Shown: positions 2 to 14,492, counted from the first letter of the stretch. The stretch: DNA of 64,000 nt from Chloroflexota bacterium (GCA_021787985.1 JAJYLG010000008.1:2821-66820); one strand, 5' to 3'. Notes: generated from the sequence alone by a model not told the origin. Made by a program: numbers and translations.

Positions 2-646
2 GCGGACCTCAAGTACGTGCGGGAGAAGGGCGACGAGCAGGACTTCTCCTATCTGCAGCCGGAAGGCAGGCAGCCGGACGCGGGATTCGGCACCAGCTTC
101 AAGGAGATCCTGGAGTACATCCACAGCACGATCTCGGAGATCAAGCGGGCCAACAAGCCGTTCATCGCCGCCGTGAAGGGGGTGGCCGCCGCCGGAGGGT
201 TCGGGCTGGCGATGGCGTGCGACCTCGTGTACGCGTCCGACGACGCCGCGTTCGAGTGGGCGTACCGCAAGACCGGCCTGACGGGCGCCGAGAGCTCGAC
301 CTTCTTTCTGCCGCGGCTCGTCGGCCTGCGCAAGGCCATGGAGCTCGTGCTGTTGAACCCCCGACTGACGGCGGCCCAGGCGCTGGAGCTCGGCCTGGTC
401 AACGCGGTCTTCTCTCGCGCGACCTTCGACGCCTCGGTGATGGCGGTAGCCGAGAAGCTGGCCGAGGGACCGACACGCGCGCTGGGCATCGCCAAGACCT
501 TGATCCACTCGGCGGTGGCCGGTGACCGCCTCGACTACCACCTGGACTTGGAGCTGGAGCACCTGGCCCGCATCGCGGAGACGAGGGAGTTCGCCGAGGG
601 GCTCGACGCGTTTCTCGAGAAGCGCGAGCCGAAGTTCGACAGCTAG
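2..646 (+). CDS. Enoyl-CoA hydratase/isomerase (crotonase) family protein, 5' partial; HypX-like Tyr/Glu signature
   Basis: The frame is open from the window edge (ADLKYVREK...). Crotonase motifs IAAVKGVAAAGGFGLAMACD, LPRLVG and C-terminal EGLDAFLEKREPKF are present. Confidence 0.85.
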   Translation, partial: ADLKYVREKGDEQDFSYLQPEGRQPDAGFGTSFKEILEYIHSTISEIKRANKPFIAAVKGVAAAGGFGLAMACDLVYASDDAAFEWAYRKTGLTGAESSTFFLPRLVGLRKAMELVLLNPRLTAAQALELGLVNAVFSRATFDASVMAVAEKLAEGPTRALGIAKTLIHSAVAGDRLDYHLDLELEHLARIAETREFAEGLDAFLEKREPKFDS

Positions 647-692
647 TCGCTCGGTCGCGCGCGGCAGACCAGGGCGGGGAGCGGGTGCCACG

Positions 693-1787
693 ATGAAGCC
701 AGTGCGGCACGAGGCCGGGGGAAGCGAAAGCGGCGAGACACGGCAGCGAAGCCGGCTGTTTTTCGGCGACGAGCGAGTATCGATGGCGCACGGCAGCGGT
801 GGCCGGGCGAGCCACACGCTGGTCAACCGGCTCTTCCTCGAGCTCTTCCGCAATCCCCTGCTCGAGAAGCTGGATGACCAGGCCGTGTTCGCGCTGGACG
901 AGGACAGCGGTCCGCGACTCGCCCTCACCACCGATTCGTTCGTGATCCATCCGCTCTTCTTTCCGGGCGGCGACATCGGCAAGCTGGCGGTCCACGGCAC
1001 CATCAACGACCTCGCCATGTCCGGCGCACGTCCGCTGCACCTCTCGGCCGGCTTCATCCTCGAGGAGGGCTTGCCGCTCGGCGACCTGCAGCGCATCGCC
1101 GAGTCGATGGCCGAGGCCTGCGCCCGCTGCGGCGTGGCGATCGTGACCGGCGACACGAAAGTGGTGAACCGCGGCAAGGGCGATGGCGTCTTCATCAACA
1201 CGACGGGGATCGGAATCGTCCCAGATGGCGTGAGCATCTCCGCTTCCAACGCCCGGCCGGGTGACCGGGTGATCGTCAGCGGTCCCATCGGCGAGCACGG
1301 GGTCGCCATCATGATCGCCCGCGGTGGGCTGGACTTCGAGGCGGAGATCGCCAGCGACACGGCCGCGCTGCACTCGCTGGTGGGGACGATGCTCGCGGTG
1401 ACACCTCGCATCCACTGTTTGCGGGACCCGACGCGCGGCGGGGTGGCGACCGTGCTCAACGAGATCGCGGAGCGGTCGGAGGTAGGGATCGTCATCGACG
1501 AGGCCCGCGTCCCGGTCTCCGAGCCGGTCCGCAGCGCGTGCGAGGTGCTGGGCATCGACCCGCTCTACGTCGCCAACGAGGGCAAGCTGGTGGCGGTCGT
1601 GCCGGGCGACGTGGCCGAGGACGTCGTATCCGCCATGCGCCAATGCGATTGTGGGCTGGGACGGGAGGCAACCATCGTGGGTGAGGTGGTGGAAGAGCCG
1701 CGGCGGCGAGTGCTGCTGCGCACCGCGCTGGGGGGAACTCGCATCGTGGACATGCTCGTTGGCGACCCGCTCCCTCGCATCTGCTGA
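693..1787 (+). CDS. hypE: Hydrogenase maturation carbamoyl dehydratase HypE
   Basis: Motifs MAHGSGG, TTDSFVI.PLFFPGGDIGKLAVHGTINDL, GDTKVV and RDPTRGG, plus the diagnostic C-terminal PRIC. Start taken at ATG 693. Confidence 0.95.
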   Translation: MKPVRHEAGGSESGETRQRSRLFFGDERVSMAHGSGGRASHTLVNRLFLELFRNPLLEKLDDQAVFALDEDSGPRLALTTDSFVIHPLFFPGGDIGKLAVHGTINDLAMSGARPLHLSAGFILEEGLPLGDLQRIAESMAEACARCGVAIVTGDTKVVNRGKGDGVFINTTGIGIVPDGVSISASNARPGDRVIVSGPIGEHGVAIMIARGGLDFEAEIASDTAALHSLVGTMLAVTPRIHCLRDPTRGGVATVLNEIAERSEVGIVIDEARVPVSEPVRSACEVLGIDPLYVANEGKLVAVVPGDVAEDVVSAMRQCDCGLGREATIVGEVVEEPRRRVLLRTALGGTRIVDMLVGDPLPRIC

Positions 1788-1803
1788 TGGTGGTGCCCTT
1801 GCC

Positions 1804-2358
1804 GTGCTCAACGCATGTGGACCAGATGACCCTCGCGAGCCGCGGGTGCTCGTCGCCGGCATGGGGACCGTCCTGCGGAAGGACGACGGGTTCGGCGTGG
1901 CGGTGGTCCGTCACCTGATGGAGACCTGGCGGCCACGTCCCGCGAACGTCACGCTGGTCGACTGCGGGGCGGCTGGGATCAGCCTCGTGCAGGAGCTTCT
2001 GGACGGATACGACGCCCTGATCGTGGTGGACGCGGTGCGGCGCCACGGGCGTCCGGGAACGATCTACGTGCTGGAGCCGCGGGTCCAAGCGCTGATGGAG
2101 CGGGATGATTCCCTGCGCCAAGCGTCTCTCACGGACGCCCATCTGATGGAGCCGGGCCAGGTGTTCGCCGTCGCACACGGTCTGGGTGTGTTGCCGCCGT
2201 ACGTGCGCGTGGTGGGCTGCGAACCGGCCGAGGTCGATGAGGCCGAGATCGGCCTGTCGGCCAGCCTGCAGCACGCGCTCCGCCCGGCGGCGCACCGCGT
2301 CCGCGCGCTGGCGGAGGAGCTGGTCGCGCCGCCGCGGAGCGGTTCGTCCTCGGAGTAG
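1804..2358 (+). CDS. Hydrogenase maturation endopeptidase (HyaD/HybD family)
   Basis: RVLVAGMGTVLRKDDGFG, IVVDAV..G.PGTIY, DAH and VVGCEP motifs. The start (GTG 1804) is uncertain. Confidence 0.85.
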   Translation: MLNACGPDDPREPRVLVAGMGTVLRKDDGFGVAVVRHLMETWRPRPANVTLVDCGAAGISLVQELLDGYDALIVVDAVRRHGRPGTIYVLEPRVQALMERDDSLRQASLTDAHLMEPGQVFAVAHGLGVLPPYVRVVGCEPAEVDEAEIGLSASLQHALRPAAHRVRALAEELVAPPRSGSSSE

Positions 2359-3428: not shown

Positions 3429-5303
3429 CTATTCTTCCTCCAAGAGGCAGGCGCAGGTGTTGACCTCGCGGACGATCGCCCTATCGCCGGCAAAGACGTG
3501 GGTGGTGCAGGGCATGCACGGGTCGAAGCTGCGGATGGCACGCAGGATGTCGATCCCCTTGAAATCCTCCTGGCGGTCGAACCGCTCGATGACCGGCGTG
3601 CTGAGCACCGCTTCCTCGTAGGGTCCCGGATTCCCCCAGGGGTCCCGCGGCGAGGCGTTCAGGGTGGACGGGGTGATGATCTGGTAGTTGGTCACCACTC
3701 CCTTGTCCATGACGAGATGGTGGGTGAGGTAGCCGCGGCCGGCGCCCCAGAATCCGGCGCCGAGCCGCTGGTCGTTGGGCACGCGGTAGTCACGGCTTAC
3801 GGCAACGTCGCCGCGCTTCATCAGATCGTACGCCGCCATGAGGTTGCTGAGCGCCACCAGTGCCGTGTAGGCCACGGCGTACGCCCGCGCGCGGTTGCGC
3901 TCGATGGCATTCCACTCGTCCGGGATGTGCCACTCGAGCTCCGTCTCCGGCAGCCTGCCCTTCGGCACGACCATCTTGAGACTGTGGCCGGTGGACTCGA
4001 TGAACGGGTTCGCCGGCAGTTTCTGAGCCGCGGCCGTGGTCCACATCCGCACGTACACGCCGGCCTCCACCGCCACCCGGTCCCAGCGCGGCGCCGTGTC
4101 CCAGGTGTACTTCTCCTTCCAGCTCCGGCCGACGGGCTTCGGTCGTGTCTCCTTGTTCCACGGATGGAACGGGCTGAGCGGGTATCCGGCGGGATCCGTC
4201 GGGAATTTCTGCCCGCTCCAGTCTTCGTAATAGGAGTGCTCGACGAACTCCTCGAGGCCCGCGTTCATGGCGTGAAGGTTCGTCGTGACCAGCTCGCCGT
4301 CGCGCACGACGCCGGGGGTGTTCCATCGTCGCTCACCCCACTGGGCCGCGTGTTCGTAGACCGCGTCGTATGCCTCGTGGTGGTCCCAGATCCCGGCGTC
4401 GATCAGGTTCTTCGGTCGTGCGCCCACCTGGCGAAAGCGCGGCTCGACCGCGTAGAGGAAGTCGTACACGTCGTCCCACAGGGGCGCGACCTTCTTGGCG
4501 TAGTCGAGGATGTCGAACAGGCGGGACTGGTACTCGTTGAAGACGCGAAACGATATTGTCGTGCTGATGCCGCCGGGCACGATCGTCTGGGGGTGTGGGT
4601 ACTTGCCCCACACCAGCACCGTCATCTCCCGGGCCTTACGCGTGATCTCGAGCGCTTCCAGGTATAGGGAGCCGCTCAGCGGGTTGAGCGCCGCCATGAT
4701 GTCACCGATCGTGCCGAATCCGTGCACGGCGGCGTGCGGCGCGGCGGTGTGCTCGGCGCGCTCCCAGATCTCGGGGTTAGTGGCGCGAATCGCGGACTCG
4801 GAGTAGTCCGGTCCGCCGAGCAGGAAGAGGTGCAACGGGTTGTCGTAGAGGAACTCGGCCGTCTGCCCGAGATTGCGCACGACGATGCCCATCGGCGGCG
4901 GCTGCACACCGAAGGCCATCTCGATCGCCTCTGCCGAGCAGTTGGCGTGGACCCCACCGCAGACGCCGCACGCGCGGCTGCTGATGAAGATCGCGTCCCG
5001 CGGATCGCGCCCCTTGAGGATGACCTCGTAGCCGCGGAATAGGGTCGCCATCGCGTGCGCGTCGAGCACACGGCCCTCGTTCAGGTCGACGACCGCGTGG
5101 AACGCCAGGGCGCCGGCCACGCGCGTCACCGGGTCGATGCTCACCTCCTGGATGTGGCCGTTGCGGCGCAGCAACTCCTCGATGCGTTCCTGCTGGGTCG
5201 CCACCGTTGTCGTCGCGCGAACTCCATATGGGTCGGCGACGTTGGCCTTGAGGCGTGCTCTGCCGGACTCGTCGAACTCAATCGGCAGGTTCTTGAAGCA
5301 CAT
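3429..5303 (-). CDS. hylL: [NiFe]-hydrogenase large subunit, group 1 (probably 1l/Hyl)
   Basis: L1 motif SRACGVCGGVH, L2 motif DPCMPCTTH followed by a cleavable C-terminal extension, and a GGAGGAG RBS. The subgroup and symbol are inferred from gene architecture. Confidence 0.9.
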   Translation of the reverse strand: MCFKNLPIEFDESGRARLKANVADPYGVRATTTVATQQERIEELLRRNGHIQEVSIDPVTRVAGALAFHAVVDLNEGRVLDAHAMATLFRGYEVILKGRDPRDAIFISSRACGVCGGVHANCSAEAIEMAFGVQPPPMGIVVRNLGQTAEFLYDNPLHLFLLGGPDYSESAIRATNPEIWERAEHTAAPHAAVHGFGTIGDIMAALNPLSGSLYLEALEITRKAREMTVLVWGKYPHPQTIVPGGISTTISFRVFNEYQSRLFDILDYAKKVAPLWDDVYDFLYAVEPRFRQVGARPKNLIDAGIWDHHEAYDAVYEHAAQWGERRWNTPGVVRDGELVTTNLHAMNAGLEEFVEHSYYEDWSGQKFPTDPAGYPLSPFHPWNKETRPKPVGRSWKEKYTWDTAPRWDRVAVEAGVYVRMWTTAAAQKLPANPFIESTGHSLKMVVPKGRLPETELEWHIPDEWNAIERNRARAYAVAYTALVALSNLMAAYDLMKRGDVAVSRDYRVPNDQRLGAGFWGAGRGYLTHHLVMDKGVVTNYQIITPSTLNASPRDPWGNPGPYEEAVLSTPVIERFDRQEDFKGIDILRAIRSFDPCMPCTTHVFAGDRAIVREVNTCACLLEEE

Positions 5304-5327: not shown

Positions 5328-5621
5328 CTAGGGGGCTGTTCGCCCGGGCGCACCAGGCGGCAAGCGGTTGTTCAGCGACCGCAGGTTGGCAGTCAGGCCG
5401 TCGGCGCCCGTCGCGAGCGCTTCCAAGCCGCGCCGGAGCGGCGGCACCTGCCCCTCGAGGAGAGCGGTCTGACGGTCGATAGCCGCGACCCCCCAGACGA
5501 TCTTCGCGGCGGTAAGGCGGATGCGCTCCAGGGAGCGCCGTATCCGGTTCAGGGCCAGCGCCAGCAGCGCGAGGAAGAGAAGGAGGAGCACGGCCGAGAG
5601 GATCGCCAGGATCACCGTCAT
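5328..5621 (-). CDS. Single-pass membrane protein with coiled-coil tail (HylTM-like #4)
   Basis: N-terminal hydrophobic helix (VILAILSAVLLLLFLALLALAL), amphipathic tail and RBS AGGTGG. The ATG overlaps the upstream stop. Confidence 0.75.
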   Translation of the reverse strand: MTVILAILSAVLLLLFLALLALALNRIRRSLERIRLTAAKIVWGVAAIDRQTALLEGQVPPLRRGLEALATGADGLTANLRSLNNRLPPGAPGRTAP

Positions 5622-5923
5622 CTTGTCCCACCTTCGTTCACCAGGCCCGCGGTTCTCAGCCTCGCGCCCAGGTCGACGGCGACCTGCGCGATTCCGTCCG
5701 CCCCGACGCCGAGCCGCTGGGCGGTGCTCGCCAGGGGGCCGAGCTCCGGGAGCGCGGCCGAGTTGCGGCCGATGCCCTCAATTGAACGGAGCGCCGTTCG
5801 AGCCTGCAGGTCGATGGCTCGCAGGTGCACGACGATTCGGGTCACCATCAGCACCGCCACCAGCGTCAGCGGGAGCGCGGCCAGCAGCGCCACGAGCCAG
5901 ACAATCGCCGCCGTTAGGTTCAT
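5618..5923 (-). CDS. Single-pass membrane protein (HylTM-like #3)
   Basis: N-terminal TM helix, L..I...A...L.SI.GI..N pattern and RBS GAGGAG. Confidence 0.75.
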   Translation of the reverse strand: MNLTAAIVWLVALLAALPLTLVAVLMVTRIVVHLRAIDLQARTALRSIEGIGRNSAALPELGPLASTAQRLGVGADGIAQVAVDLGARLRTAGLVNEGGTR

Positions 5924-5933
5924 ATGCCGCTCC

Positions 5934-6230
5934 TCACGCTGCCGCCGAGCGGCTGCTGCCGGCGGCGTCCGGCTCGCCGCCGAGATCTCCGGACGTGGCC
6001 TCGAGGTCGGAGGCTACGCGACCGAGGGCCGCGTTCACCTGCCCGAGCTGCTCGTTGAGAGGCCGCGTCACATCTTCGACCACCGCCATCAGGCGCGAGA
6101 TCCGGACGAACGAGTCGCCTACCCTGCGCAGGTAGACGAGGATCGTCACCAGGCTGACCGCAAGCACGAGCGCGACAACGACCGCGTACACGAGCGAGAT
6201 GATCTGGACTACGAGGATGAACGTGTCCAC
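5934..6230 (-). CDS. Single-pass membrane protein (HylTM-like #2)
   Basis: GTG start after GGAGG, a TM helix, then LRRVGDSF.RISRLM.VVEDVTRPL...LGQVN. Confidence 0.75.
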   Translation of the reverse strand: MDTFILVVQIISLVYAVVVALVLAVSLVTILVYLRRVGDSFVRISRLMAVVEDVTRPLNEQLGQVNAALGRVASDLEATSGDLGGEPDAAGSSRSAAA

Positions 6231-6242
6231 AGCATCCTCCGG

Positions 6243-6539
6243 CTAGGACGGTCCCGGCCGCTGTGCCGCCAGCTTGTCATCGAGGGCGGCGGTCGCCGCG
6301 GCGATGGCAACCACCGCGGCGAGAATGCGGCCCGCGGTCTGATTCGTCTGCGCAAGGAGTGGGATGCTGGTCGTGTTCGACGCGATGCCCTTGCCAGCCT
6401 GCCACACCTCGAGGGCGTGGCGATCGATTCGCTCGGCCGCGCGCCAGATCGCGATCAGCAGCACGGCAACGACCAGCAGCACGACGACCGCGATGATGAG
6501 GATGATCCACCAGAACTGCGGGATGGTAGCGTCGGGCAT
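6243..6539 (-). CDS. Single-pass membrane protein (HylTM-like #1)
   Basis: RBS AGGAGG, TM helix FWWIILIIAVVVLLVVAVLLIAI, then RI...A.EVW..GKGIASNT. Confidence 0.75.
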   Translation of the reverse strand: MPDATIPQFWWIILIIAVVVLLVVAVLLIAIWRAAERIDRHALEVWQAGKGIASNTTSIPLLAQTNQTAGRILAAVVAIAAATAALDDKLAAQRPGPS

Positions 6540-6588: not shown

Positions 6589-7830
6589 CTACTCCGGCTT
6601 GGCGGCCGTGCCGTGACGCTGGCGCCGGTTGTAGAGGAACTCCAGCGTCCGGTCCACCACGGGCAGCTCGTACTCGGCGCCCCAGCCGCTGGGGATGCGC
6701 TTCTCCCGGTCCCAGCGGGTCGAGTGATTGCGGTCTCGCTGGGTCACTCTGCGAAGCGCGCGCACCAGCGCCCCGCCGGTCTTCGAGATGCTGCTGGACA
6801 CGAGGACGCCCGGTGCAGCCTTGTAGAAGGGCGCGAACTTGTCCGGGAAGCCCGGCATGGTGCAGCCGATGCAGACGCCCCCCGCGTGCATGCAGCCGCC
6901 GACGCCGTTGATGGCGCCTCGTGAGGTGATGTTGCAGTTCACCACGGGGCCCCAGCAGCCGATCTCGACCAGGCACTCGCGGTCGCCGGGGGAGTCGGCG
7001 AAGGTGCCCTCCTCGTAGTAGCCCGCGCGATTGCACTGGCGGTGGACCGTCTCGCTGAAGAGCCAGGCTGGTCGTCCCAGCTCGTCGAACTCCGGCACCG
7101 GTCCGAGGCCCTGCAAGAACAGCAGCACGGCGGCGACCGTCTCCGTGAAGTTGTCTCCGACCGGCGCGCAGCCCGGGATGTTGACGACCGGCAGGCCGAG
7201 CGCGCTGCGATACTCGGGTCCCAAGAAGTCCATCACACCCATCGCGCCCGTGGGATTGTGGTAGGCGGCGGGGATGCCGCCCCACGTGGCGCAGGTGCCG
7301 ATGGCGATGACCGCCGCCGCGCCCGGGGCCATGCGCTTGAGCCACGTCGCCGACGGCACGGCGCGGGCTTCACCTCGTGCCTCGTCGAGCTCCTCGCCCA
7401 CCGCCGACCAGTAGCCCTCACCGGCTCGCGCCTCGTCGGCAACCGAACCCTCGTAGACGACTACATAGGGGACGCCCAGCGTGCCTTCCGCCGCGCTGCG
7501 TGCGGCCCGCATGAACGGCTCGCCTGCCTCGACGTTGATCGCCGTGTGATGGAGGAAAACCTGCGGCAGCCCCGGCAACGTGCCCAGCAGCAGGTCCTCG
7601 ACGCGCGGCGCGGTCGCCCCGAGGACCGCGATGCTGCATCCGTCGCAGCTCATCCCCGCCAGCCAGAAAACGTGGACGGCGGTGTACGGACCGAGCAGGC
7701 TATCCTTGCCAAGCCGCTCCCGCGCCTGCCGCGCGATCTCCTCGGTGGTCGCGCCGGCAATGTTGCCGACCATCCCCATGCCGCGGCCCGGTGCGACCCC
7801 GACGGACGGTTTCTCCGTGGTCACCATCAC
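6589..7830 (-). CDS. hylS: [NiFe]-hydrogenase small subunit without a Tat signal
   Basis: Fe-S ligand motifs SCDGCS, GTCATWGG, PGCAP, HRQC, CL..IGC.GP..NC and GGC...GGVCIGC..PGFPD. RBS GAGGAGG. No RRxFLK motif. Confidence 0.9.
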   Translation of the reverse strand: MMVTTEKPSVGVAPGRGMGMVGNIAGATTEEIARQARERLGKDSLLGPYTAVHVFWLAGMSCDGCSIAVLGATAPRVEDLLLGTLPGLPQVFLHHTAINVEAGEPFMRAARSAAEGTLGVPYVVVYEGSVADEARAGEGYWSAVGEELDEARGEARAVPSATWLKRMAPGAAAVIAIGTCATWGGIPAAYHNPTGAMGVMDFLGPEYRSALGLPVVNIPGCAPVGDNFTETVAAVLLFLQGLGPVPEFDELGRPAWLFSETVHRQCNRAGYYEEGTFADSPGDRECLVEIGCWGPVVNCNITSRGAINGVGGCMHAGGVCIGCTMPGFPDKFAPFYKAAPGVLVSSSISKTGGALVRALRRVTQRDRNHSTRWDREKRIPSGWGAEYELPVVDRTLEFLYNRRQRHGTAAKPE

Positions 7831-7857: not shown

Positions 7858-8643
7858 TCAGCGCGCGACTTCGCGCGTCAGCGTCTCGACCAGCGCGCCG
7901 ATAGCCCGCACCGCCGGCGCCGACGGCCGATAGTCAATCGCCGATCGATTCTCCCGATCGGCATCTTGAACGGACTCATCGAACGGGACCACCCCCGCCA
8001 CCGCCACGCCAAGGCGCTGGCTGTACTCGCGGATGGCGGCCTCGTCCCGTGGCGAACGGACCTTGTTCGCGACCGCGTGAACGCGAGGGAGACCCAGCCC
8101 GCGCGCCAGCGGCACCGTTCGCCCCATCGTCTCCAGCGCTCGGTAGTAGGGCTCCGTCACCACCAGCAGCGTGTCCACGTTGCGCACGGTGCCACGGCTG
8201 AGGTGCTCGATGGACGCTTCCATGTCGAGGATCGTCACCTCGTTGCGCGACGAGGACGGCAGCTCCGCGATCACGCCACGCACCGTGGCGTGCTGTCCGC
8301 ACAGTCAGCCCTTGCCCGCGCCCAGGAGGCCGGTCATAGAGAGCACTCGCATCCCGGCAGGACCGACCACGCCGTACTCCGACACGATCTCGTCGAAGGG
8401 ACGCCGCAGCCGCAGGCTGGCCCGCCCTTCTTCGTCTACCAGCTCGTCGAATATCGCTTCTCGGGGGACGCGGCGCAGCGCGCTGATCTGTTCTGGCGCC
8501 AAGCCGAGGGCCGCCGCCAGATTCGGATTCGGGTCATCGTCGAGGGCGTTGACGCGGTAGCCACGTTCGGCGAACACGCGCGCCATCGTGGCCGCCACCG
8601 TCGTCTTGCCGGCGCCGCCCTTCCCCGCGACGGCGATTCTCAC
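7858..8643 (-). CDS. cooC: CooC/AcsF-type Ni-insertion ATPase with in-frame UGA (predicted selenocysteine, U113-L-C115)
   Basis: The two ORF-track pieces (8305-8745 and 7858-8283) are one reading frame separated only by TGA 8305-8307. Motifs GKGGAGKTT, DDDPNPNL and DMEASIEHLSRGT are present. GTG start at 8643 follows GGGAGG, giving 261 codons. Confidence 0.85.
8272..8307 (-). other. Candidate bacterial SECIS element
   Basis: UGA, then 12 nt, then the perfect hairpin CACGCCACG-GUG-CGUGGCGUG (8272-8292). The apical loop starts with G about 20 nt after the UGA. Confidence 0.65.
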
Positions 8644-8817
8644 GCCCCGCTCTCCCTCCCAGCACGGCGAGCGATCATCGCTCCGGCCATGCGCTGGCGT
8701 GCGAGCGGCTCTCCCTCCGCTCCACCCTTCGCCCGGGTAGTCCACGGCCGCCCCGCACGCTGGGCGGTCAGGCGGCCGATGAGATGGACAACCGGGCGCC
8801 TCCCTCGGGATGCTCGC

Positions 8818-8846
8818 ATGTTAGTGCGGGATTTCCCATATTTCAA
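8818..8846 (-). promoter_or_regulatory. Sigma70-type promoter for the cooC-hydrogenase operon
   Basis: TTGAAA (8841-8846), 17-nt spacer, TAACAT (8818-8823), in a locally AT-richer patch. Confidence 0.6.
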
Positions 8847-8929: not shown

Positions 8930-10615
8930 TCAGCTTGCACCGCGGATTTGCGTTCCCACCGGCTGTCCCGTCACGAAGACTTGCTTGAAGCAGCCGTTCG
9001 TGCCGCTGCCGTACCAGCCATGGGCGAAGTACCAGGCATCCAGCACCGCCGCACGGTAGATCCAGTAGCCCGTCGGATAGTACAGGTCGATCGTGGGCAG
9101 GTCTTGGGCGAGGATGACCTGCATCCGGTCGACGATGGCCTTGCGCGCGGCCTCGTCGATGGTCGAGAGCTGCTGCGCGGCAAGGCTGTCGAACGTCGGA
9201 TTGGCGTAGCCGTGGACCCGGGTGAAGCTCTTGCTCTTGCTGTGACTGTCGAACTTCGCGCGCAGGCCATCGGGGTCGCCTCCCAGCCCGCCGAAGCCGA
9301 CCAGCGCAAGGTCGTAGCGACCCTGGGCCGCCGCGCTGTCGCGCGCTTGCCCGTCCATGACCTGCGGCGTGACCTGGATCCCGGCCGCTTTCAGGTAGGA
9401 CTGGAGCAGCTCGGCAACACGGATCGGATCGCTGTTGGCCAGGATCAGTGGGAAGCGCAGCGGGGTGCCCGTCGCGGTCTCCCGGACTCCATCGTGGTCG
9501 CGGTCGAGATAGCCGGCGTCGTCGAGGAGCCGCTGCGCCTTTGCCGTATCGAATGGGTACTGTGGCACCCGGGGGTTATGCCAGGGGCTGGTCGGCGCGA
9601 CCTGGCCGGGATTCCCGACCACCCCCTGGCCCTGGAGGAAGCGCGCGACCAGGTCGTCCAAGTTCAACGCGTAGCCGACCGCCTGCCGGAATCGGACGTC
9701 GGCCAGCGGACCGCCCTTCGCCATGTTGAAGAACAGCGCGAACGTCCATTCCAATGGCGAGCTGATTGTCTTGAATCTGTTGTCTCGCTTAAACGAATCG
9801 AGGACGCCCGGCGGGGCCGCCTGGTTGAACCCGAGGCCGCCGGCGTCGATCCCACCCTGCTGCAGCGCCAGCAGCTCGTTGGGGGCGGGCACCTGTTCGA
9901 TCCGCCGCACGTAGGGACGGCCGAGGAAGAAGCTATCGTTCGCTTCGAACAGATAGCTGCCCTGTGCTTCGTTGTACTGCTGCAGGCGATATGGCCCGGT
10001 TCCGACCGTGGCGCTCGGTGCGTCGAACTTGGTCGGGTCACTGACCGGTTCCCAGACGTGCCTGGGCAGGATGAACACCGACGTGGCGATCGACGGGATC
10101 AACGGCGCGTAGGGCTCCTTGAGGCGCAATCGGATCGAGGTCTCCGTCACCTTCTCGGCACCCGCGACCACCTGCAGGCTAGACGCCCACCATGGGGTCG
10201 GGTGCGCAGCCAGGTACTCGAAGGTGAAAACCACGTCGTCGGCCGTGAACGGTTGGCCGTCCTGCCACTTCACATCCGGGCGGAGGCTGAAGGTCCAGGC
10301 GCGCCCTCCCTGCTCCGGCGCCCAACTGGTCGCGAGCCACGGTATGACTCCGCGCGAGTCGTGCCACGCGAGGGTGTCGAAGACGTAGCTCGTGTTCACG
10401 TGTCCCGGACCGCGCGAGAACATGAACGGCGTGGGTCGCCCGTAGTCCCCGCCCGCCAGTCGCACTGTCGGCCGAGGGGCGGCCGTCGCGGTCGCGGTCA
10501 CGGCCTGCTGTGCCCCGCCGCTGCACGCATTGAGCAGCCAGGGGGCGGCGGCGACGATCCCGCCGGCGCCGGCCGCCCGCAACAATGCTCGCCTGGTCAG
10601 ACCTCGACTCGCCAT
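8930..10615 (-). CDS. ABC transporter substrate-binding protein, family 5 (Opp/Dpp/Nik), Tat lipoprotein
   Basis: TRRALL twin-arginine motif, lipobox LNAC, and LRPDVKWQDGQPFTADDVVFTF and VGTGPY family 5 motifs. Confidence 0.88.
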   Translation of the reverse strand: MASRGLTRRALLRAAGAGGIVAAAPWLLNACSGGAQQAVTATATAAPRPTVRLAGGDYGRPTPFMFSRGPGHVNTSYVFDTLAWHDSRGVIPWLATSWAPEQGGRAWTFSLRPDVKWQDGQPFTADDVVFTFEYLAAHPTPWWASSLQVVAGAEKVTETSIRLRLKEPYAPLIPSIATSVFILPRHVWEPVSDPTKFDAPSATVGTGPYRLQQYNEAQGSYLFEANDSFFLGRPYVRRIEQVPAPNELLALQQGGIDAGGLGFNQAAPPGVLDSFKRDNRFKTISSPLEWTFALFFNMAKGGPLADVRFRQAVGYALNLDDLVARFLQGQGVVGNPGQVAPTSPWHNPRVPQYPFDTAKAQRLLDDAGYLDRDHDGVRETATGTPLRFPLILANSDPIRVAELLQSYLKAAGIQVTPQVMDGQARDSAAAQGRYDLALVGFGGLGGDPDGLRAKFDSHSKSKSFTRVHGYANPTFDSLAAQQLSTIDEAARKAIVDRMQVILAQDLPTIDLYYPTGYWIYRAAVLDAWYFAHGWYGSGTNGCFKQVFVTGQPVGTQIRGAS

Positions 10616-10697
10616 GCCCCCTCGCCTCCGATCGCTCTTCCCATCGCGGAACCAGTCCGTCCGGCTCGATGCCCGAGCCGCCGGCGGATTCGCGCGC

Positions 10698-12620
10698 CTA
10701 CTCTTCCGCCGCCGCACCCGCCTGGATCTCGCGCCCCGAACCGGGCGGCTTCCAAGCAGGCAAACGGTCGTCCGCCGCCTCAGCCTCGACTGTCTCTGGG
10801 GCCGCGCGACCGTTCGCGCGCAACGCTTGGGACCTGGCGCCGGCAGCCGCGACGAGCAGCCGCCGCGTGTAGGGATGCCGCGGCTCGCTCACCACTTGCT
10901 CCGAGGGCCCGGCCTCCACGATCCGTCCGTGCTCCATGACGATCACGCGGTCGGCGACTTTACGGACCAGGGGTAGGTCGTGGGAGACGAGCAGGAGCGC
11001 GGTGCCGTGGTCGTTCTGGAGGTCCTTGAGCAGGCGCAACACGCGGGCTTGCTCGCTCGGGTCGAGCATCGAGGTCGGTTCGTCCGCCACGATGACCTTG
11101 GGGCGTACGACCAGGGCCCGCGCGATGGCAATGCGCTGCAACTGACCGCCTGACAGCTCGTGCACGCGCTTGGCCAGGAACTCCCGCGTCGTGGGCAGCC
11201 GGGCGGCGGCCAGCGCTGCCCGCGCCGTCTCGTCTCGTTCCGCGCGGTTCCCGATCCGCTGGATGTCGAGCGGCTCCCGCACCAGCTCGAGCGCAGTGAG
11301 GCGTGGGCTCAACGCCTCGTACGGGTCCTGGAAGATGAACTGCAGGAGTCGGCGCGCGGCTCTGCGCGCCTCCCCTCTCAGCGAATGGAGCGGCTGGCCC
11401 TGCAACTGCACGTCGCCCCGGTCCGGTTCGAGGAGGCCCACGATCATCCTGGCGAGCGTGGTCTTCCCGCTTCCCGTCTGGCCAACGACCGCGACCACCT
11501 CGCCCTCGCCCAGATGGAGGCTCGCGTCCTGCACGGCCTGCACCGGTGGGCCCGGGCCGTCGCGGAACGTCTTGCTGAGTCGCCGCGCCTCCAGCAGCAG
11601 GCGAAGACCGCCCAGGTGGCAGGCAACCAGCCGGTCGAGCTGGGGCATGAGCGCCGGGATCTCGGCCTGGCAGCGATCGATGGTTTGCGTGCAGCGCGGC
11701 GCGAACGCACAACCGGAAGGAGGGCACATGGGGTCGGGCGCTTCGCCGCGGATTCCCCAGAGGTCCTTCGAGCGCGTCATGGTGGGGTAGGCGTTGACCA
11801 GACCCCAGGTGTACGGATGGCGCGGGCTTTCGATCACGTCGTGAGCCTCGCCGACCTCCACTGCCCGTCCCGCGTAGAGCACGAGCGCGCGCTGCGCCAG
11901 TTGGCGCACGTCGTCGGGGTTGTGGGAGATCACCAGCATCGCGAGGTCGTGCTCCGCGTGCAGCCGCCGCAGAAGGTCGAGGATCGCCACGCGGGTAAAG
12001 GAGTCGAGGCCGCTGGTCGGCTCGTCGAGGATGAGAAGCGCCGGGGCGCCGGCGAGGGCCATCGCCAGCATGGCGCGCCTCTTCTCGCCTCCGCTGAGCT
12101 GATGGGGATAGTGGCCGAAGCGCTGGGCTGGCAGGCCGACCTCATCCCACGCGCGGAGCGCGCGCTCGCGAGCCGCGTCGCGGCGCAGACCGCGCCGCTC
12201 TTGGAGTGGCTCGATCAACTGGTCGCCTACCCGCTGTACCGGATCGAAGCCAGTGCCGCTCGCCTGCGCGACCAGCGCGATCTGCGACCAGCGGAATCGG
12301 TTCATGGCGCGGTCGTCGCGGAGCGGCAGTGGCGTCCCGCCGAATTCGACGACTCCCTCAACCTCCGCCGTGGGCACGAGGCCCAGCAGGGCAAGCGCCA
12401 GCGTGGTCTTGCCTGAACCCGATTCGCCGATGACTCCAAGGGTGTCGCCACGGCCGAGCTCGAACGTGACCCCGCGGAGCGCCGGGAGCATGAGGTCATT
12501 CGGCAGGCGGTAGCGCACGCTCAGCTCGCGAACCGCGAGCAACGACCGGTGCGCGACGGCGCCGTCCGTCGAGGGTCGCTCAGGCCCGCGTTTGCAGTCG
12601 GTCGACTCGTGCGTTTCCAT
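10698..12620 (-). CDS. Fused dual-domain ABC ATPase (OppD/OppF-like)
   Basis: Two Walker A motifs (GESGSGKT, GQTGSGKT), two LSGG signatures and a PSGC.F.PRC...ACH Cys motif. The start is uncertain. Confidence 0.88.
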   Translation of the reverse strand: METHESTDCKRGPERPSTDGAVAHRSLLAVRELSVRYRLPNDLMLPALRGVTFELGRGDTLGVIGESGSGKTTLALALLGLVPTAEVEGVVEFGGTPLPLRDDRAMNRFRWSQIALVAQASGTGFDPVQRVGDQLIEPLQERRGLRRDAARERALRAWDEVGLPAQRFGHYPHQLSGGEKRRAMLAMALAGAPALLILDEPTSGLDSFTRVAILDLLRRLHAEHDLAMLVISHNPDDVRQLAQRALVLYAGRAVEVGEAHDVIESPRHPYTWGLVNAYPTMTRSKDLWGIRGEAPDPMCPPSGCAFAPRCTQTIDRCQAEIPALMPQLDRLVACHLGGLRLLLEARRLSKTFRDGPGPPVQAVQDASLHLGEGEVVAVVGQTGSGKTTLARMIVGLLEPDRGDVQLQGQPLHSLRGEARRAARRLLQFIFQDPYEALSPRLTALELVREPLDIQRIGNRAERDETARAALAAARLPTTREFLAKRVHELSGGQLQRIAIARALVVRPKVIVADEPTSMLDPSEQARVLRLLKDLQNDHGTALLLVSHDLPLVRKVADRVIVMEHGRIVEAGPSEQVVSEPRHPYTRRLLVAAAGARSQALRANGRAAPETVEAEAADDRLPAWKPPGSGREIQAGAAAEE

Positions 12621-13464
12621 AGCGCTCCAGCGCGGTGCCCCACAGCGTGAACCCCACGACGAGCAGCGAGATGCAGGCTCCGGCGGGGAGGGCCCACCAC
12701 AACCAATAAGGCGTGAGGTAGATCCCGTCGAAGTTCAGCGCTGCACGGAGGACCCCTCCCCAGCTCTTGAGGGTCGGGTCGCCCAGGCCGAGAAAAGCCA
12801 GCCCGGCCTCCATCATCACGGCCCGTCCGGCCAGCGACACGAACGCGGCCGCGGCGACGGGCGTGACCGCCGGCAGCAGGTGGCGGCGCATCAGGTAGAA
12901 GTGGCTGCCTCCCAACAGGCGCGCGGACTTGACGTGAGCGCGCTCGCGCAAGGTCAGGACCTGGGCGCGGATCACCCGTGCGGGCCCGGCCCACATTACC
13001 AGCACGACCACCAGGATCACGCTGTTGAGCCCCGGCCCGAGAAAGGCGGCCAGGACGATCATCAGCGGAAGGTGCGGCACGGCCATGAAGACGTCCACGA
13101 CGCGCATCAGCAACGCGTCGAACCAACCGCCGACGGTCGCCGCGCTAACGCCGACGAGCAGCGCGAGCGCCAGGCTCAAGCCGGCTCCCAGGAGTGCGAC
13201 CGTCAAGGAGACGCGAGCGCCATAGATGAGCTCGCTCAGGATGTCCTGGCCGACATCGTTCGTGCCGAGCAGATACGCGCCGGTCGGGCGCAGCAGTGGC
13301 GCGGCGACGTACGCGGTCGGATGGTACGGCGCGACCAGTGGCGCGAGGACGGCCGTGGCCGCGAACCCGGCCACGATGCCGGCACCCAGCCACGCCGCGC
13401 TCAGGCGCAGCCGTCGTCGGGAGACGAGGGCGGGGCGTGGCAGCGGCGTCGCGAGGGAGCTCAT
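12580..13464 (-). CDS. ABC permease (OppC/DppC/NikC-like)
   Basis: LLGTNDVGQDILSELIYGARVSL, EAA-loop region and LAFLGLGDP...SWG. Confidence 0.9.
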   Translation of the reverse strand: MSSLATPLPRPALVSRRRLRLSAAWLGAGIVAGFAATAVLAPLVAPYHPTAYVAAPLLRPTGAYLLGTNDVGQDILSELIYGARVSLTVALLGAGLSLALALLVGVSAATVGGWFDALLMRVVDVFMAVPHLPLMIVLAAFLGPGLNSVILVVVLVMWAGPARVIRAQVLTLRERAHVKSARLLGGSHFYLMRRHLLPAVTPVAAAAFVSLAGRAVMMEAGLAFLGLGDPTLKSWGGVLRAALNFDGIYLTPYWLWWALPAGACISLLVVGFTLWGTALERYGNARVDRLQTRA

Positions 13465-14492
13465 CGGGTCCTCACGCGCGGGTCAAGCCGGGCATAGGCC
13501 AGGTCGGCGATCAAGTTGGCGGTGAGCACCGACACCGTGAAGACGAGGAAGACTCCCTGCAGCACGGGATAGTCCCGAGCGGAGACCGCCTGAAACGCCA
13601 GCGTGCCCATGCCGGGATAGGCGAACACCGCTTCGACGAAGATGGAGCCGGTCACGGCGAAACCGAGCTGGATCGAGAGCACGGTGACGAAGGGGAGCAG
13701 CGCGTTGCGCAAGGCATGACGGTACTTCAGGCTGCGGTCGGACAATCCTTTTGCCTTGGCCACGAGCATGAAATCGTCGCCCAGCACGGAGATGACGCTG
13801 TTGCGCATCAAGAGGAACTGGCCGCCCAGCATCTCGATCGTCAAGACCAGCGCCGGCAACGCCCAGTGGTGGAGCAGGTCGGCCAGCGCGCCCCACGGTG
13901 AGCGGTAGTGGGCGAACGGCGTCTGGGCGCCGGCGAGCGGGAACCAGCCGAGCCGGACGCTGAACAGCAGCAAGGCGAGCACGCCGAGGAAGAAAGCCGG
14001 GAGGGTCCGAATGCCGGCGAAGAGGACGATCAGGCCGCGGTCCAGCGGCGAGCCGCGATGCCAACCGGCGTGCAGGCCGGCGACCATGCTGACCAGTGAC
14101 GCCGCGAGCATGGCCGGGAAGATGAGCAGGACGGTCCAGAGGATGCGGTGCTGGATGAGCAGGCTCACGGGCGCATTCAGGCGAATGGACCAGCCGAGGT
14201 CCCCCGTGGCCAGGCCACGGAGGTACCTCCCGTATTGCACGATCAGCGACTGATCGAGCCCATAGTAGTGCGAGAGCGCGGCGCGGCTGGCCTGATCGCT
14301 GACGTAGAGGCTGCTCTCCGGGTCCTGCAACGCCGTGATCGGGTCTCCCGGCATCATCCGTGGCAAGGCGAAGTTCAGCGTGATGACGGCGAACAGCGTC
14401 AGCACGAAGGCCGCGCAGCGTCCGGCCAACCAGCGGGGAGGGCCGGTACGCTGCCACCGCATCCGTCGTGCCGCCCGTGCCACGGCTAGCAT
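13461..14492 (-). CDS. ABC permease (OppB/DppB/NikB-like)
   Basis: RMMPGDP, GLDQSLIVQYGRYL..L..GDLGWS, AKAKGLS and RDYPVLQG. Confidence 0.9.
   Translation of the reverse strand: MLAVARAARRMRWQRTGPPRWLAGRCAAFVLTLFAVITLNFALPRMMPGDPITALQDPESSLYVSDQASRAALSHYYGLDQSLIVQYGRYLRGLATGDLGWSIRLNAPVSLLIQHRILWTVLLIFPAMLAASLVSMVAGLHAGWHRGSPLDRGLIVLFAGIRTLPAFFLGVLALLLFSVRLGWFPLAGAQTPFAHYRSPWGALADLLHHWALPALVLTIEMLGGQFLLMRNSVISVLGDDFMLVAKAKGLSDRSLKYRHALRNALLPFVTVLSIQLGFAVTGSIFVEAVFAYPGMGTLAFQAVSARDYPVLQGVFLVFTVSVLTANLIADLAYARLDPRVRTR

Follow-up and report, generated by a model that had tools for sequence, protein, structure and literature searches.

The selenocysteine insertion sequence (SECIS) of Escherichia coli fdhF and fdnG is an experimentally defined SelB-binding hairpin with a bulged U and a GGUC-type loop, and in the minimal fdhF element the upper hairpin lies 11 nucleotides (nt) after the UGA codon. 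The more general bacterial SECIS (bSECIS) model of bSECISearch (Zhang and Gladyshev) describes an upper stem of 4–16 base pairs (bp) whose apical loop, 3–9 nt long, has a G at its first or second position and usually a G or U after it, with 16–37 nt from the UGA to the apical loop and a folding energy of −7.5 kcal/mol or lower (PMC13188914). On the protein side, the closest described system is CooC1 of Carboxydothermus hydrogenoformans (PDB 3KJE, 3KJG, 3KJH and 3KJI), the nickel-insertion ATPase of carbon monoxide (CO) dehydrogenase. Here, we investigated a hairpin in a 64,000-nt stretch of DNA from a Chloroflexota bacterium (GCA_021787985.1, JAJYLG010000008.1:2821-66820; hereafter the window), which is located within a CooC-type ATPase gene, shortly downstream of an in-frame UGA at codon 113. 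Judging from the comparisons presented below, this hairpin is very probably a functional SECIS, and the ATPase gene a selenoprotein gene.

Both the UGA and the hairpin are located on the minus strand (Table 1), where the RNA reads, 5′ to 3′, GGC UGA CUG UGC GGA CAG CAC GCC ACG GUG CGU GGC GUG AUC. This matches exactly the description in a first-pass annotation of the window, which had placed a perfect 9-bp stem with a G-starting loop in coding sequence after the UGA, giving the right coordinates without naming the strand. The stem indeed consists of nine Watson–Crick pairs with no bulge, and 21 nt separate the UGA from the first G of the loop, in agreement with the earlier estimate of about 20 nt. 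The UGA is in frame, as the open reading frames (ORFs) on its two sides, 8745..8305 and 8283..7858, are read in the same phase. With a 3-nt loop starting with GU, a 9-bp stem, a distance of 21 nt and an energy of −14.7 kcal/mol for the hairpin alone, the element falls within all four published ranges of the bSECIS model (PMC13188914), from which it does not differ structurally, and it lies in coding sequence directly 3′ of the selenocysteine (Sec) UGA; the earlier placement among bacterial SECIS elements is thereby supported. As in E. coli fdhF and fdnG, the stem-loop starts approximately 11–12 nt after the UGA and exposes a G-U in its loop, with the C-terminal domain of SelB as the presumed partner. 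In contrast to these elements, it carries a GUG triloop (GGUGC if the closing pair opens) on a longer, perfect stem, and a lower stem is not conserved in its family. The element thus fits the general bacterial SECIS model and is not a copy of the fdhF type.

Covariation among UGA-containing homologues and loss of the stem in those with cysteine (Cys) had been suggested as checks in the first-pass annotation, and both turned out in favour of a SECIS. Family-alignment scans of species-representative genomes and metagenome contigs yielded 160 loci, from which a pattern search for TGA at the first Cys position, followed by deduplication, left 55 Sec and 74 Cys sequences, all distinct. The Sec form occurs in named genome records of Chloroflexota, Thermomicrobiota, Acidobacteriota, Actinomycetota, Verrucomicrobiota, Dormibacterota and SAR324, while the 60 genomes of relatives from the same class contained only Cys-type homologues, 24–40% identical and with no UGA form, which are too distant for a test of the hairpin. 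In-register pairing reaches 6.9 of 9 pairs in the Sec forms versus 4.85 in the Cys forms (p = 1e-13), and the inner 5-bp core is intact in 43/55 of the former versus 4/74 of the latter (Fisher 1e-18). The best G-loop hairpin in any register has a median energy of −8.0 kcal/mol in Sec forms versus −3.1 kcal/mol in Cys forms. The apical loop lies 20–21 nt after the UGA in 47 of the 55 Sec forms, and in all but one of them (54/55) the 5-nt loop segment has GUN at its centre. Across these 55 sequences, 76.8% of the cells are paired in register, versus 22–48% when the 3′ partner is slid, and there are 54 double-sided changes versus 18.8 ± 5.2 in shuffles (0/500). A set of 25 Sec sequences behaves in the same way, with 75.6% of the cells paired versus 25–47% when slid, and 24 double-sided changes versus 8.2 ± 2.7 (0/500). 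Pairing in the 74 Cys sequences, at 53.9% of the cells, is at the shuffle level (mean 53.6%). An independent RNAalifold run on 25 Sec forms chose the same register; it retained the three best-conserved pairs only, at a weak energy of −1.36 kcal/mol, and is therefore in favour of this register, though not strong as a prediction in its own right.

Being embedded in coding sequence, the stem could be a mere by-product of encoding the conserved peptide H-A-T-V-R-G-V with GC-rich codons, with no function at the RNA level and with the UGA possibly recoded by other means. The peptide is codon-palindromic: synonymous-codon resampling gives on average 6.7 of 9 pairs for the same amino acids, the full nine being reached in 2.1% of the resamples. 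Moreover, the G-U of the loop opens an invariant Val codon, which is found in Cys forms as well, and one Cys form outside the clade discussed below (L110) has 8/9 pairs. The synonymous positions, however, provide the cleanest evidence that the pairing is tied to the UGA. Within the stem, the Arg122 codon contributes its third base to a pair with the first position of codon 120; when codon 120 starts with A (mostly Thr), Arg122 is encoded by the otherwise rare CGU in 21/22 Sec forms, and when it starts with G (Ala), by CGC in 24/28, whereas Cys forms with Arg show the A-U match in only 4/11 cases. Likewise, in the Ala codon, GCC is used opposite G and GCU opposite A across the stem, leaving 51/55 Sec cells paired. 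This tracking of the opposite arm by Arg and Ala third positions is confined to Sec forms. Consistently, the excess of observed over synonymously expected pairs is +1.5 in Sec forms versus +0.5 in Cys forms, and even those Cys forms that share the V-R dipeptide pair less (5.3 vs 6.8, p = 1e-4). Hence neither the Cys homologues nor the resampled codons show the stem to the same extent, and compensatory changes do occur. Together with the shuffle-level pairing of the Cys forms and with the hairpins of the same type in unrelated selenoprotein genes of this genome (see below), these data make a pure by-product of the peptide highly improbable. As a separate observation, codon 122 (8280..8278), with which the 3′ arm begins, specifies Arg (CGN) in 55/55 Sec forms but in only approximately half of the Cys forms, the remainder having Ser, Ala or Gln; this distribution suggests that the SECIS may constrain the protein sequence.

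Thermodynamic stability is less informative. Among the 55 Sec forms, the window hairpin is, jointly with that of L174, the most stable one, and the 40-nt stretch around it folds at −19.4 kcal/mol. RNAfold recovers the hairpin in 40-, 48-, 71- and 141-nt contexts, although another structure has the lowest energy when the 71-nt stretch is framed differently. The energy is low relative to shuffled sequences for the 40-nt (z = −2.2, 6/200 shuffles as good) and the 48-nt stretch (z = −1.9, 9/200), while z lies between −0.4 and −1.0 for the 141-nt stretch and both 71-nt ones, which is not significant and which the by-product explanation would likewise accommodate. These long-context scores are unremarkable because the sequence is 65–70% GC, and in such DNA energy by itself cannot decide the matter. 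A further estimate is obtained by counting, throughout the genome, stems of at least 8 bp (G-U pairs allowed) capped by a GUN triloop: there are 246 per 7.0 M strand-bases, so that the chance of finding one in a given 22-nt stretch is P ~0.0008. The peptide favours pairing, yet chance does not account for a perfect stem in this position. A transcription terminator on either strand was ruled out, as the hairpin is accompanied by neither a T-run nor a terminator call.

The host genome encodes the complete Sec machinery, namely selA (489.8 bits), selB (341.6 bits), selC, the tRNA-Sec gene (78.7 bits, UCA anticodon by ARAGORN), and selD (331.6 bits), the last with its own in-frame TGA at the canonical position. 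Four further genes with a predicted Sec codon, encoding FdhA, a Tat-type (twin-arginine translocation) FdnG-like protein, SelD and a candidate member of the UGSC family (VIVGSAD-U-GSCTSW), each carry a GC-rich 8–9-bp stem with a GUN triloop 19–33 nt after the UGA. Their stem sequences are unrelated to that of the window element, their spacings differ from its 21 nt (19, 19, 33 and 19 nt, respectively), and they are themselves predictions. Nevertheless, the window hairpin (9 bp, GUG, 21 nt) is of the same design as the hairpins at the other Sec UGA codons of this genome. A fifth TGA followed by an 8–9-bp stem with a GUN triloop occurs elsewhere in the genome (IEVLEGC-U-PPEPVV), as a candidate without assignment. 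The TGA sites of these genes are located on contigs outside the window, at C112:41210 (+), C181:51886 (+), C22:37792 (+), C60:45339 (−) and C54:564 (+).

Besides the pairing bias of the peptide, the invariant Val codon under the loop, the well-paired L110 and the unremarkable long-context energies, several other observations weigh against a SECIS. The bulged U and the GGUC-type loop of E. coli fdhF and fdnG are absent, and an Rfam scan of 8150..8400 with E values up to 10 matched no SECIS family, its sole match being a chance CRISPR-DR hit (E = 5); the Rfam models of bacterial SECIS elements are lineage-specific. RNA folding offers two structures for the spacer CUGUGCGGACAG: it can close into a weak hairpin of 4 bp (CUGU/ACAG), or it can provide the 5′ strand of a lower stem, of which the version pairing 8304..8297 with 8270..8263 is predicted in the window sequence alone. 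Such a lower stem shows no in-register conservation (3.9/7 pairs in Sec forms vs 3.35/7 in Cys forms), and it was dropped from the model. A search of sequencing runs found the sequence only in the source mine-drainage DNA run and in no RNA run. Furthermore, the in-register core is missing in 12/55 Sec forms. In several of these the hairpin is displaced, as in a Verrucomicrobia clade (AUGCCGC-GGU-GCGGCAU) or in L060 (GCGCACC-GGUC-GGUGCGC), and L051 retains 4/5 core pairs, while a simple hairpin search revealed no stable alternative in L050, L137, L068 and L076.

The remaining objection is a clade of Cys paralogues (L141, L143b, L149b and L152) that keeps 8, 7, 9 and 6 of the 9 pairs, respectively. 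Its members share the motif C-L-C-[GS]-E-H-I-T-[VI]-R-D-[ML] and the hairpin CAU AUC ACG gug CGU GAU AUG (sites: L141 at 457, L143 at 342, L149 at 288 and L152 at 1837), and on the L143 and L149 contigs the Cys-type copy lies approximately 1.5 kb upstream of a Sec-type copy. An in-register hairpin that shows a compensatory C-G to U-A change relative to the sister Sec clade is what one would expect if the structure had another or an additional function, such as translational pausing or mRNA stabilization, that is also exerted in some Cys copies. However, the clade is small and the hairpin is missing from the other 70 Cys forms, while the position and the loop of the window element agree with the SECIS model and with what is seen in the genome's other selenoprotein genes. 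Because these paralogues are the immediate sister of the Sec clade at a short distance, a relic SECIS left after a recent Sec-to-Cys switch is the simplest reading and explains their hairpin equally well. We therefore regard a function other than Sec insertion as improbable, though somewhat less so than a by-product of the peptide, and a SECIS may persist after reversion to Cys. The earlier proposal that the hairpin is evidence for recoding in its own right, separate from the protein motif, holds, with the qualification that the peptide alone accounts for approximately 6.7 of the 9 pairs and that one Cys clade retains the structure.

The phylogeny of the family lends itself to comparing Sec and Cys forms at close range. 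In a maximum-likelihood tree of 127 proteins, well-supported branches force at least seven switches between Sec and Cys. The window protein and L047, a Sec form from Thermomicrobiales with 67% identity, share a supported clade of 15 rows (9 Sec and 6 Cys forms), which is nested in a larger clade with 34 Sec and 10 Cys members. Within the smaller clade, the six Cys forms (L048, L130, L138, L127, L131 and L134) have only 3–6 of the 9 pairs left; the nested Cys forms of the window's own clade have thus lost the stem. A strong tRNA-Sec match was found in 18/23 Sec-form genomes, which are incomplete metagenome-assembled genomes. Presence of tRNA-Sec does not distinguish Sec-form from Cys-form genomes, as many of the latter have it too.

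The ATPase gene is preceded by a ribosome-binding site (GGGAGGGAG) 8 nt upstream of its GTG start, and its product, the N-terminus of which reads MRIAVAGKGGAGKTT, matches CbiA/ParA/MinD-type Pfam families. It carries the deviant Walker A motif of the MinD fold family (GKGGAGKTT at residues 7–15, against the pattern GKGGxGKT), and full-length homologues with up to 67% identity start with MRIAVAGKGG, as the window protein does. The best solved relative is CooC1 (PDB 3KJE), a MinD-type P-loop ATPase of equal length matched with E = 5e-30 over residues 1–224. The identity between the two is low, and CooC1 has Cys where the window protein is predicted to have Sec: the UGA occupies the first position of the G-U-L-C-G-Q-H motif, so that U113-Leu-C115 aligns with the CxC metal site Cys112-Tyr-Cys114 of CooC1. 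Position 113 is an invariant Cys in 25 full-length homologues; Cys113, Cys115 and His118 are all invariant in the 26-row alignment, and the motif G-C-[IL]-C occurs in 104/120 full-length database homologues, that is, in all those located by the pattern search. The association with CO dehydrogenase is not shared, as the window ATPase heads a [NiFe]-hydrogenase operon and no CO dehydrogenase gene was found among the window ORFs scanned. By sequence and motif, though not by genomic association, the window protein is a homologue of CooC.

Could the TGA simply be a true stop, marking a pseudogene or a split gene, or else an assembly error, which would render the hairpin irrelevant? TGA is an ordinary stop in this genome, and all full-length database homologues that we found are Cys forms. 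Global reassignment of TGA was ruled out, since it ends 6 of the 11 Pfam-supported genes of the window, this ATPase gene included (TGA at 7860..7858). However, the TGA is present at the equivalent codon in 54 other distinct sequences, making 55 from several phyla with the frame kept on both sides, and tblastn matches continue through it in one frame (e.g. L047, residues 1–258, 67% identity). In every case its position is that of the invariant metal-binding Cys. The genome has the entire Sec machinery, and the lack of full-length Sec forms in databases is explained by gene callers that split selenoprotein genes at the UGA. A true stop or an assembly error is, accordingly, the least credible of the explanations considered here, and exceedingly unlikely. 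The terminal TGA at 7860..7858 shares its frame with the ORF of the hydrogenase small subunit, 27 nt further downstream; this TGA is presumably read as an ordinary stop, since homologues end nearby. A sigma-70-like promoter match (TTGAAA, 17 nt, TAACAT; 9/12) is located at 8818..8846 (−), approximately 175 nt upstream of the ATPase start, and shuffles of this region contain a mean of 0.1 such sites.

The small-subunit gene, which starts 27 nt downstream of the ATPase gene, follows the latter directly in 26/54 Sec-form loci, or in 22/39 of those with enough flanking DNA. Read by eye, its N-terminal sequence contains no twin-arginine (RRxF) signal motif. A NiFeSe hydrogenase was ruled out, as the large subunit is of the Cys type, with a C-terminal DPCMPC. 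The four tandem ORFs between the two subunit genes each encode a single N-terminal hydrophobic helix and look paralogous. Directly upstream of the ATPase gene lie the genes of an Opp/Nik-type transporter, for a family-5 solute-binding protein, two permeases and a fused double ATPase; this transporter may import nickel for the hydrogenase cluster. The HypE-like and HycI/HupD-type genes adjoining the large-subunit gene confirm that this is a hydrogenase maturation neighbourhood.

Table 1. Elements of the UGA–hairpin region, surrounding genes of the window, and hairpins predicted at other Sec codons of the same genome (stem arms are given around the triloop)
Feature	Position	Strand	Details
In-frame UGA	8307..8305	−	Codon 113 of the CooC-type ATPase gene, predicted to be read as Sec
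Spacer, 12 nt	8304..8293	−	CUGUGCGGACAG; separates the UGA from the hairpin
Putative SECIS upper hairpin, whole	8292..8272	−	Inside codons His118–Val124
Hairpin 5′ arm	8292..8284	−	CACGCCACG
Apical loop	8283..8281	−	GUG
Hairpin 3′ arm	8280..8272	−	CGUGGCGUG
CooC-type P-loop ATPase gene	8643..7858	−	262 codons, one internal in-frame UGA; GTG start at 8643
[NiFe]-hydrogenase small-subunit gene	6589..7830	−	Pfam NiFe_hyd_SSU_C and Oxidored_q6
Four tandem ORFs of ~100 amino acids	6539..6243, 6230..5934, 5923..5618, 5621..5328	−	Between the small- and large-subunit genes (5328..6539)
[NiFe]-hydrogenase large-subunit gene	3429..5303	−	Pfam NiFeSe_Hases, 1.4e-72
Opp/Nik-type ATP-binding cassette (ABC) transporter	8930..14492	−	Pfam BPD_transp_1 twice, ABC_tran with oligo_HPY, SBP_bac_5
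HypE-like gene (AIR-synthase-related) and HycI/HupD-type maturation protease gene	522..2358	+	Adjoin the large-subunit gene
FdhA, SCNRT-U-HAPSVV			CGUCGUCG-GUC-UGGCGACG; loop starts 19 nt after UGA
Tat-type FdnG-like, QQARV-U-HGPTVV			GGUGGUCA-GUU-UGGCCACC; loop starts 19 nt after UGA
SelD, TACGG-U-ASKLG			CUGGCGCAG-GUA-CUGCGCCGG; loop starts 33 nt after UGA
Candidate UGSC-family gene, SAD-U-GSC			CGUCGUGGA-GUA-UCCACGGCG; loop starts 19 nt after UGA

We infer that SelB binds this hairpin and that Sec is actually inserted at UGA113. On arrival of the ribosome at this codon of the ATPase mRNA, the GC-rich 9-bp stem, 12 nt past the UGA, would be positioned at the mRNA entrance and display its G-U-containing apical loop. 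SelB, carrying GTP and Sec-tRNA(Sec), would bind the loop via its C-terminal winged-helix domains and, competing with release factor 2, bring Sec into the A site. Translation would thereby yield the complete 262-residue ATPase, in which a U-x-C metal site replaces C-x-C. By homology with CooC1, this site may bind a metal, probably nickel, at the dimer interface, and the position of the gene suggests that the ATPase probably serves the maturation of the adjacent [NiFe] hydrogenase.

While the SECIS mechanism proposed here is standard for bacteria, the selenoprotein family appears to be new to the literature. The prokaryotic selenoprotein family table of May 2026 (PMC13188914) has no CooC, MinD, P-loop or PF01656 entry, and no CooC, MinD or PF01656 entry was found in the main texts of BSepDB and deep-Sep or in the deep-Sep supplements. 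In the full-text literature covered by our search, which did not extend to subscription journals, CooC and selenocysteine or selenoprotein are mentioned only separately. It is likely, in our view, that CooC-type metallochaperone ATPases of [NiFe]-hydrogenase clusters constitute an uncatalogued, widespread selenoprotein family, in which Sec acts as a ligand of a metal, probably nickel, rather than in redox chemistry.

The hairpin provides evidence at the RNA level, independent of the protein motif, that a seemingly ‘broken’ ATPase gene is a selenoprotein gene. With 55 Sec and 74 Cys forms and at least seven switches between them, the family also offers a case in which a coding-region SECIS is gained or lost along with its codon. 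If the proposed function holds true, it would represent a further instance of Sec serving as a metal-chaperone ligand and would link selenium supply to [NiFe]-hydrogenase maturation in Chloroflexota, Acidobacteriota, Actinomycetota and other phyla. Hydrogenase maturation would then be selenium-dependent in many uncultured bacteria, mostly from environmental metagenomes.

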